A DNA stretch of 64,000 bases from Hormiphora californensis (taxonomy: Eukaryota; Animalia; Ctenophora). Location of the stretch: contig CM035353.1 in assembly GCA_020137815.1 (NCBI GenBank), positions 2,852,001 to 2,916,000 on the forward strand. The letters run 5' to 3'. The notes under the pieces are model-generated. The model was not told the DNA's origin. It did not search any database and saw nothing but the letters and a program-made list of their open reading frames with translations. The position numbers were made by a program, and so were the translations under genes. Below are positions 27,301 to 29,596 of this stretch, piece after piece; position 1 is the first letter of the stretch; every line of letters starts with the position of its first letter.

Positions 27301-29596
27301 GCGTCATTTTACCACCATCAGGGAACTTGGGGTGAACCCCTCCAAAGTAAACCTGCAGGGGCATTTAATTAACTATTTAATTAACTATTTAATTATTAAT
27401 CGTGTTATATGTAGGACACGAGTGCGGAGAAAAAAGCAATATATGACGTATAATGTTAACTTTTATTTATGTATTCTGTACCACGATGCACTGCTAAGGT
27501 TAACAATGTGTATGTGTGTATTACACATGGGAAACCACATAAAACTAACAAGTGATGACAACTGCTACACCACCGGATATTTCTCAAATAGTGTCTCAAC
27601 AACTACTGCATTATATGATCAGTACAAAATACTGGATGACAATTAACATTAGATAAAACACTAATTGTTATTAACAGGTTCAATACACAACCTTTTTCAC
27701 AACATCTCTCAGTACCCTAACCTAGAACCTACAGCCTATTAAACCCACCAGTCAACTAATTAATAATCTTTTCAATTGATTAATAACATATTCGACTAAT
27801 TAACTAATTACCTTAATTACAAGATCCATATGGCCTCCTTAATTAACTACAATTACCTTAATTACAAGATCCATATGGCCGACATCGTCATCTGAACTGG
27901 TGGGGGTGTAAGATCGTACAACCAGTTCATTGTTTACCGTGGCAACGAGACTCAGGTGGTTTCCTGCAGGACATGTGATTTAGTTACCGTGGCAACCAGA
28001 CTCAGGTGGTTTCCTGCAGGACATGTGATTTAGTTACCGTGGCAACCAGACTCAGGTGGTTTCCTGCAGGACATGTGATTTAGTTACCGTGACAACCAGA
28101 CTCAGGTGGTTTCCTGCAGGACATGTGATTTAGTTACCGTGGCAACCAGACTCAGGTGGTTTCCTGCAGGACATGTGATTTAGTTACCGTGGCAACCAGA
28201 CTCAGGTGGTTTCCTGCAGGACATGTGATTTAGTTACCGTGGCAACCAGACTCAGGTGGTTTCCTGCAGGACATGTGATTTAGTTACCGTGGCAACCCGA
28301 CTCAGGTGGTTTCCTGCAGGACATGTGATTTAGTTACCGTGGCAACCAGACTCAGGTGGTTTCCTGCAGGACATGTGATTTAGTTACCGTGACAACCAGA
28401 CTCAGGTGGTTTCCTGCAGGACATGTGATTTAGTTACCGTGGCAACCAGACTCAGGTGGTTTCCTGCAGGACATGTGATTTAGTTACCGTGGGAACCAGA
28501 CTCAGGTGGTTTCCTGCAGGACATGTGATTTAGTTACCGTGGCAACCAGACTCAGGTGGTTTCCTGCAGGACATGTGATTGGCTCATTTCTTACCGATGG
28601 GAGGGGAGGGGAAAGTGGCTCATTTCTTACCGATGGGGGGGGGGGTGAAGTGGCTCATTTCTTACCGATGGGGGGGGGGGGGGGAAGTGGCTCGTTTCTT
28701 ACCGATGGGAGGGGGAGGGGAAAGTGGCTCATTTCTTACCGATCGGTAGACCAAGGATGTGTTCATCTGATGGGAGGGCAAATCGAAACAATCTCGTATC
28801 ATGTGTTATCACCTATTAGGGAGCAGCAGGTCTAGTCATAAAGGTTCGAATACTGACCAATACCTGAGATTGGTAAATCTTTTGAAATATAATAAAAATA
28901 TAATAATTATAACTCAAATAACTGTAATCGTGATTGGTAAATCTTCTAAAACGGCCTATTTCCCAACTTACATCCTTCTTGATAAGCTTTAGTGGGACTT
29001 TGATGTCCGGATTCAGTGTAACAGGGGGGCCTTTCCTTTTCTTTCCCAGTAGTAGATAGAGGGTGACAAGGGAAATAGAGACTAGCGTCGTAATACCTGC
29101 TACCAACTGAAACACACGCTTGGTATTACTAATATGTTCTCTAACCCTGCAGAAAAAGGGTCGAGCAATATATTGGATGACCTGATACCGTGGGTCATTT
29201 CAATATATTGCTGGACCCTTTTTCTGCAGGGTTAGAGCCCAAGTCAATATTGAATGATCAAGTCTATTACTTCTGATGTTGCTGGAATGATATCCAGTAT
29301 TGGTTGCACCCTGCAGTACTCAGTATCTCTCTATCTCTCACCCACACACTAGTGAGGTACTTGATCTTACAGCGCACCGCCTTACTACACGCATAAATGT
29401 GCAAGTAGAAACACACAAAAATTGTCTCAATATTCTGTGAAATAACTGGAAAACTGGGATAACAGGAACCGACCGAATCAGGAAATACTGGTCCTTGATT
29501 GGCTGATAACCAGTCACGTGGCCTAAATAACGAGTTATAATTGGTTGTTTACTTGTTTCGGTCGGTTCCTGTGGGATAAAATACCTTAACGTCCAT
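24323..29596 (-). CDS. CYB5R: NADH-cytochrome b5 reductase, 8 coding exons, 297 aa
   Basis: Exons 29596-29585, 29106-28972, 28812-28740, 27963-27857, 27352-27248, 26979-26877, 24916-24731 and 24495-24323 total 894 nt and are phase-consistent. N-terminal membrane anchor; [25 protein letters not shown] (FAD); [27 protein letters not shown] (NADH); LLFANQT; MCGPPGM. Confidence 0.96.
24892..26710 (-). repeat. 49-bp tandem array (~37 copies) of CYB5R splice acceptor plus exon start
   Basis: Minus-strand unit ccaaaccaaacccctcctgcacag|GTGTCACACCAATGCTACAGATAGC. Confidence 0.95.
26711..26800 (-). mobile_element. Second copy of the (CCAAA)n-tailed retroposon
   Basis: Shares GTAAACAGTCACACAG and CATAGTGCCGGATCATCCTTTCGGAATCACCACCAGATC with the 59.5-kb copy. 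The flank CAGGAGGGGT (26801-26810) recurs in the adjacent array as the other TSD. Confidence 0.8.
27931..28580 (-). repeat. 50-bp tandem array (13 copies) of CYB5R splice acceptor plus exon start
   Basis: Minus-strand unit ctaaatcacatgtcctgcag|GAAACCACCTGAGTCTGGTTGCCACGGTAA. Confidence 0.95.
28581..28743 (-). repeat. Five tandem copies of the CYB5R exon-3 splice donor
   Basis: Minus-strand unit ATCG|gtaagaaatgagccac followed by a C-run. Confidence 0.9.
29140..29238. mobile_element. ~100-bp hairpin MITE in CYB5R intron 1
   Basis: CTCTAACCCTGCAGAAAAAGGGTC..GACCCTTTTTCTGCAGGGTTAGAG inverted arms. Confidence 0.75.
29463..29571. mobile_element. MITE family B
   Basis: TIR CAGGAACCGACCGA; 8-bp TSD TGGGATAA. 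Confidence 0.92.

Follow-up and report, generated by a model that had tools for sequence, protein, structure and literature searches.

Minisatellite-like duplications of 5′ and 3′ intron–exon boundaries have been described in amphioxus under the name "mirages" (Ebner et al. 2010, PMC3087553), where the globin genes BflGb6 and BflGb9 are the hosts, and where copy number was reported to differ between haplotypes, units to evolve in concert and splicing to remain undisturbed. Adh3 and troponin C are cited as amphioxus mirage genes in the same article and in PMC3902484, and PGBD5 is a further case (PMC3902484). On the donor side, intron 7 of the human F7 gene carries a 37-bp VNTR whose first unit spans the exon–intron boundary (Borensztajn et al. 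2006, PMC1557585), and mutagenesis in mammalian cells indicated that its identical pseudo-donors are functional but silent, the most upstream site being chosen (PMC1557585). Internal tandem repeats at exon–intron boundaries have also been reported for human paralogues (PMC2812944). Our literature search, in which subscription papers were thinly covered, listed no ctenophore mirage and no abutting donor and acceptor arrays. Zhuo et al. (PNAS, 2007) reportedly belong with the cases of minisatellite expansion at splice boundaries. The repeats presented here are of a type already described, and what is new is the phylum, Ctenophora, and the abutting two-ended layout.

The window, that is, the whole stretch of 64,000 nucleotides from Hormiphora californensis that was analysed, contains a gene (Table 1) whose predicted product is colinear with protein P0121, with 292 of 297 residues identical, and shares 222 of 293 residues with P0124, the named relatives in the cluster of the latter being Bolinopsis microptera NADH-cytochrome b5 reductases and a Mnemiopsis leidyi protein. 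A metagenome scan yielded a 1115-nt contig (L002) that aligns to all eight CYB5R exons and skips every intron. It shares 805 of 894 coding bases (90%) with the gene and is a spliced transcript of a related species. All seven of its junctions agree with the gene model, and exon 3 is joined to exon 4 without insert (ATCG|GAAA), which marks the outermost donor and acceptor of intron 3 as the authentic sites. The gene name and intron number given in the first-pass annotation are thereby borne out by the eight-exon model, the colinearity with P0121 and the junctions of L002. Splicing at the authentic sites is seen only in this transcript of a related species at 90% identity; run X7, guessed to be RNA, had a single contig, placed in a dispersed repeat, and left the CYB5R exons uncovered, a result that is neutral as to expression.

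Table 1. Coordinates of the CYB5R gene, of the arrays in its intron 3 and of the other junction repeats, as positions in the window.
Feature	Position	Strand	Description
CYB5R coding span	24323..29596	-	8 exons, 297 aa, no internal stop
CYB5R exon 3	28740..28812	-	73 nt
CYB5R exon 4	27857..27963	-	107 nt; starts with the terminal repeat copy (29 nt), whose base 17 sets it apart from the 12 inner units
CYB5R intron 3	27964..28739	-	776 nt, GT-AG; filled by two abutting junction-spanning arrays
CYB5R intron 3 donor array	28580..28743	-	5 GT donors; unit 35-37 nt
Centre of intron 3	28564..28594	-	31 nt, last donor copy to first acceptor copy
CYB5R intron 3 acceptor array	27934..28580	-	13 AG acceptors, 50 nt apart
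CYB5R intron 4 donor duplication	27797..27880	-	45-bp unit
CYB5R intron 6 acceptor array	24892..26710	-	49-bp unit, 38 acceptor copies
Acceptor array before exon starting SQLYHDG	52772-53151	-	about nine copies
Duplications across acceptors of two other genes	16396-16505; 58979-59120	-	two-copy and about three-copy

Intron 3 contains four GT and 12 AG splice signals beyond its own pair, all within 28739-27964. On the minus strand, the authentic donor GT at 28739 is followed by copies at 28702, 28665, 28630 and 28594, separated by units of 37, 37, 35 and 36 nt, and the acceptor AGs then run from 28564 to the authentic one at 27964. Tandem Repeats Finder reports 12.9 copies of the 50-bp acceptor unit (98% matches, score 1259) and 4.5 copies of the 37-bp donor unit (90% matches), and lets the two arrays abut at 28580; outside the array, nothing in the 64-kb window matches the 50-bp unit. 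The innermost donor–acceptor pair encloses a 31-nt sequence exactly as the first-pass annotation had quoted it.

The acceptor unit consists of 29 nt resembling the head of exon 4 (28 of 29 bases identical) and 21 nt of intron tail, of which the 31-nt centre has just the last 17. Eight of the 12 full units are identical and the other four are one base off, and base 17 of the exon-4 part is G in all 12 inner units versus C in the true exon and in L002, which indicates that the inner copies have been homogenised and the boundary copy left out. A branch-point-like TAACTAA lies about 20 nt upstream of every acceptor of the intron from the second on, and the 3–4 nt of the acceptor unit that complete this motif are missing from the centre. 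The donor unit is made of about 15 nt of intron head, a C-rich spacer of 10–12 nt that is absent from the centre, and 7–10 nt resembling the tail of exon 3; compared with the end of exon 3, this last part has 7 of 10 bases in common if the exon is that of the window and 8–9 of 10 if it is that of L002. The spacer matches the exon-3 tail at 3–4 of its 10–12 bases, a chance level that shuffles reach in 49–91% of trials. A template for the spacer in the interior of exon 3, proposed on a 10-nt match whose score was reached by 3 of 2000 shuffles and by 6–18 of 1742 real windows, was dropped, since the exon tail of L002 explains the same bases more simply. The composition of the units, together with the junctions fixed by the transcript, supports junction duplication as the source of both arrays. 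The earlier statement that the intron consists of nothing but copies of its own donor and acceptor holds for the 5-copy and 13-copy arrays and for their abutment, but not for the donor units in full, which also carry the C-rich spacer.

Given these features, the two arrays are almost certainly mirage minisatellites, one at each end of the intron. Their tandem units cross authentic exon–intron boundaries, both confirmed by L002, the extra copies are intronic and keep their GT or AG, the periods of 37 and 50 fall within the 10–160 bp of the amphioxus units, the donor array differs in copy number between haplotypes, and the inner units of the acceptor array have evolved in concert without the boundary copy. 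Each amphioxus globin gene has one repeated boundary in the published account, whereas in the ctenophore intron a donor and an acceptor array abut, their innermost sites being 31 nt apart. The F7 VNTR resembles the CYB5R donor array in its boundary-spanning first unit and in its intron-side pseudo-donors (PMC1557585); it is, however, confined to the donor side, and the scanning model proposed for it does not cover the acceptor choice that CYB5R intron 3 needs. The cases among human paralogues (PMC2812944) are alike in that minisatellites expand at splice boundaries, so that introns change in length and cryptic sites become available, but there new introns or alternative transcripts are described within the repeats, while in CYB5R an existing intron has been filled and the alternatives are out of frame or stopped.

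Seven sequencing runs, all available as contigs, bear on the reality of the arrays: four derive from one sample (S1), on which the assembly may be based, two (X5 and X6) from a second sample (S2), and the last is the one guessed to be RNA. In run X1, an 80-nt contig of the unit has a word depth of 658.5 versus 19–43 on single flanking contigs, as a collapsed array would give. One 200-nt contig of X5, an independent sample, links exon 3, by way of donor copies and the centre, to the start of an acceptor unit (record 11, with pieces 28797-28674 and 28608-28549 and 21 letters between them). Both observations speak against an assembly artefact, which could otherwise find some ground in the poly-C tracts of two donor units, 2 nt shorter in the X1 contigs than in the window, and in the absence of a contig bridging the centre (28580-28605) among the X1 contigs listed; such an artefact is highly improbable. 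A second, 472-nt contig of X5 (record 12) runs from exon 3 to 28567 and, with about 14 letters on the acceptor side, is no formal bridge. The span from first to last donor is 95 nt in record 11, 145 nt in the window and 356 nt in record 12, corresponding to about 4, 5 and about 11 donor copies, respectively, so that the donor array is real and variable between alleles. Support from sequencing runs, in the form of contigs, and the copy-number difference between haplotypes, both of which the first-pass annotation had made part of its case, are thus seen, the latter for the donor array. The same 31-nt centre is present in the window and in record 11 and partly covered in record 12, and none of the three alleles seen has unique sequence between the arrays.

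Further observations concern the exchange of sequence within and between these alleles. In record 12, two of the five terminal bases of exon 3 (28740-28744) carry synonymous changes, and a base changed in the same way seems to stand at the end of at least one donor repeat of this contig; homogenisation would then reach into the exon edge. The acceptor unit (27934-28013 and 28548-28580) is far deeper relative to its flanks in sample S2 than in S1, and the acceptor-unit contigs of X6 have a word depth of 25000, which looks like a ceiling, versus about 220–280 on flanking contigs. This hints at a much larger acceptor array in S2, with depth not being equal to copy number and the unit possibly lying elsewhere in that genome.

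Independent slippage duplications probably gave rise to one mirage minisatellite at each end of intron 3. A short duplication across each junction would survive, as its extra copies fall on the intron side, and unequal exchange or slippage might subsequently change copy number and homogenise the inner units, with the terminal copy kept by selection as exon. The 31-nt centre is then probably the scar of a deletion that would have removed, with about one base of microhomology and before the three alleles diverged, the unique middle of a normal-sized intron. This reading is favoured by the intron-like bases that both units hold and the centre lacks, namely the spacer on the donor side and the completion of TAACTAA on the acceptor side. 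It is also favoured by the sizes of the introns in the window, since the 19 called by eye from open-frame continuity in five genes measure 138–1960 nt, none of them falling below 138 nt, and by the four other junction repeats that leave 166, 169, 222 and 459 nt outside their copies. The usual floor of animal introns points in the same direction, the shortest being typically about 50–90 bp outside myxozoans and dicyemids (PMC13644364). A genome that commonly splices introns of about 30 nt is not what these 19 introns called by eye in one window look like. The metagenome scan for an orthologous genomic intron, which the first-pass annotation had suggested comparing, returned three loci, all spliced, and literature searches on ctenophore intron lengths gave no usable figure.

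The first-pass annotation had instead taken the centre as an ancestral 31-nt intron, both junctions of which would have been duplicated outward until it was 25-fold longer. On such an account the spacer would be a decayed copy of the exon-3 tail. This account requires no deletion, and the centre it starts from is a clean GT...CAG, common to the window and record 11 and, as far as record 12 covers it, present there too. The centre and exon 4 each have a CAAT, and the distance of 49 nt between the two is near the 50-bp unit, which would fit a slip from a 31-nt intron, and the exon-3 tail of L002, by matching the last 8–9 of 10 donor-unit bases, leaves less of the unit unexplained than the window alone does. 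However, the smallest called intron measures 138 nt, the spacer agrees with the exon tail no better than chance, and the centre is without a branch-point-like motif of the kinds scanned, as are 6 of the 20 other acceptors scanned. In addition, a survey of 51 genomes reports introns of animals near 30 nt for none but myxobolids and a dicyemid, and its main text does not name ctenophores (PMC13644364). We regard a 31-nt ancestor as possible but rather doubtful, and raise with similar reserve the possibility that ctenophores could splice a 31-nt micro-intron and that outward junction duplication built from it an intron of at least 0.8 kb, caught mid-growth and still changing between alleles. De novo creation of the intron by tandem duplication of exon sequence at an AG|GT proto-splice site, as in the Rogers model, could draw on the exon-4-like share of about 45% (348 of 776 nt). 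Nevertheless, the exon junction reads ATCG|GAAA and not AG|GT, the donor head and the acceptor tail are not exon-derived, and human CYB5R3 presumably has an intron at the glycine codon that matches the position of intron 3, so that this origin is extremely unlikely. The deletion of the middle of a normal-sized intron between two mirage arrays remains the reading that we prefer.

Whatever their origin, the repeats offer the splicing machinery a large choice of sites. The claim that only the outermost of the 65 donor–acceptor pairings yields the normal enzyme was upheld by a frame computation, in which the first donor with the last acceptor is the single pairing of 65 to give the full-length frame and every alternative product carries an early stop; removal of the 31-nt centre alone leads to a stop at residue 77. 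The internal donor-like site ACG|GTAACT that the annotation had pointed out, together with the 26-nt piece that it defines, is also present, the site in 12 acceptor units. It stems from the Thr-Val codons of exon 4, taken along in each copy and reading ACG|GTAAAC in the true exon, and a donor matrix from a small training set (18 local donors) gives it a score of 4.5, above the 1.7 of the authentic donor. A micro-exon function of the 26-nt piece was rejected, as none of the 5395 paths with one to three such micro-exons is open, and so was recursive splicing of the intron, as its acceptors are followed by GA and not GT. From the first donor to the first and second acceptors it is 176 and 226 nt, which are ordinary intron sizes in the window.

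The spliceosome probably picks the first donor by scanning on a first-come basis, as it does in human F7. The last acceptor is probably picked together with the 107-nt exon 4, the exon being defined as a unit, and stray splice products, all with early stops, would be cleared by nonsense-mediated decay. Avoidance of the decoy acceptors at 176 and 226 nt is assumed here. The repeats of intron 3 are probably neutral. Alternatively, the arrays could be functional, their decoys diverting a share of CYB5R transcripts to decay, with copy number as the dial. An early stop in every alternative product, the variation of copy number between alleles and the four junction repeats in the CYB5R gene would suit such a role, and in human an intronic VNTR is said to affect the splicing of ABCA7. 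However, unrelated genes of the window have similar repeats at their junctions, neither unit nor copy number was seen to be conserved, and splicing is reportedly left undisturbed by the mirages of amphioxus (PMC3087553, PMC3902484), which makes regulation by the arrays improbable compared with neutrality.

Besides those of intron 3, the window holds five more junction repeats (Table 1). In the intron 6 array, only the last of the 38 acceptors (24917) gives an open frame, and the acceptor copies in three neighbouring genes are at 16432, 52795 and 58958. Of the 42 splice sites called, 7 have a copy on the intron side only, or 5 of 40 if intron 3 is left out, versus 417 of 26580 background positions (1.6%), an enrichment that is inflated by the choice of three of the four other genes for having arrays. 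Junction repeats are evidently common in the window, and the meeting of two of them in one intron therefore needs no special mechanism. Related sequences were noticed nearby. The stretch just upstream of the intron 6 array, reaching into the intron part of its first unit, resembles a dispersed repeat also found at 59451-59561. The SQLHEDG exon of a neighbouring zinc-finger gene (61343-61590, minus strand) is similar to the SQLYHDG exon and has the same start phase, without an array. A 34-bp array of about 47 copies (41277-42890), flanked by 27-bp repeats of collagen-like look, has the look of a branch point with C tract and AG when read on the plus strand, and its minus strand contains GG|GTGAGT. 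Repeats of a branch-point-like CTAA/CTAAT with a pyrimidine tract, stopping just short of AG, occur on the minus strand at 35153-35293 and 59812-59879.

The remainder of the window contains other repeats and several further frames. A dispersed short element present in both orientations (26814-26861, 29478-29526, 9694-9742, 35508-35556 and 57686-57734) is very deep in all DNA runs examined and looks like a piece of a MITE or SINE, and introns 5 and 1 of CYB5R (27123-27228 and 29139-29237) contain perfect 26-bp palindrome arms and a 37-bp inverted repeat. All on the minus strand, a single-exon prefoldin subunit 3 gene lies downstream of CYB5R (21814-22356), a two-exon homeobox-like frame (33429-34244) and a C2H2 zinc-finger frame of eight exons and 699 codons (58073-61586) are open when joined, and long reverse-transcriptase-like open frames at 36717-39068 and 45365-48586 are, by eye, probably retrotransposons.

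CYB5R intron 3 extends mirage repeats to ctenophores, and its arrays are a trap for gene prediction and short-read assembly. The intron could serve as a natural splicing reporter, in which choices of 176 and 226 nt are typical in size, yet only the choice of 776 nt makes the enzyme, and junction counts over it would show how an early-branching animal picks its acceptors. If the 31-nt ancestor were true, the locus would document an intron body growing from its own splice junctions, and its at least 65 donor–acceptor choices would let exon definition be tested against intron definition, in a natural setting, in the lineage that is sister to the other animals.
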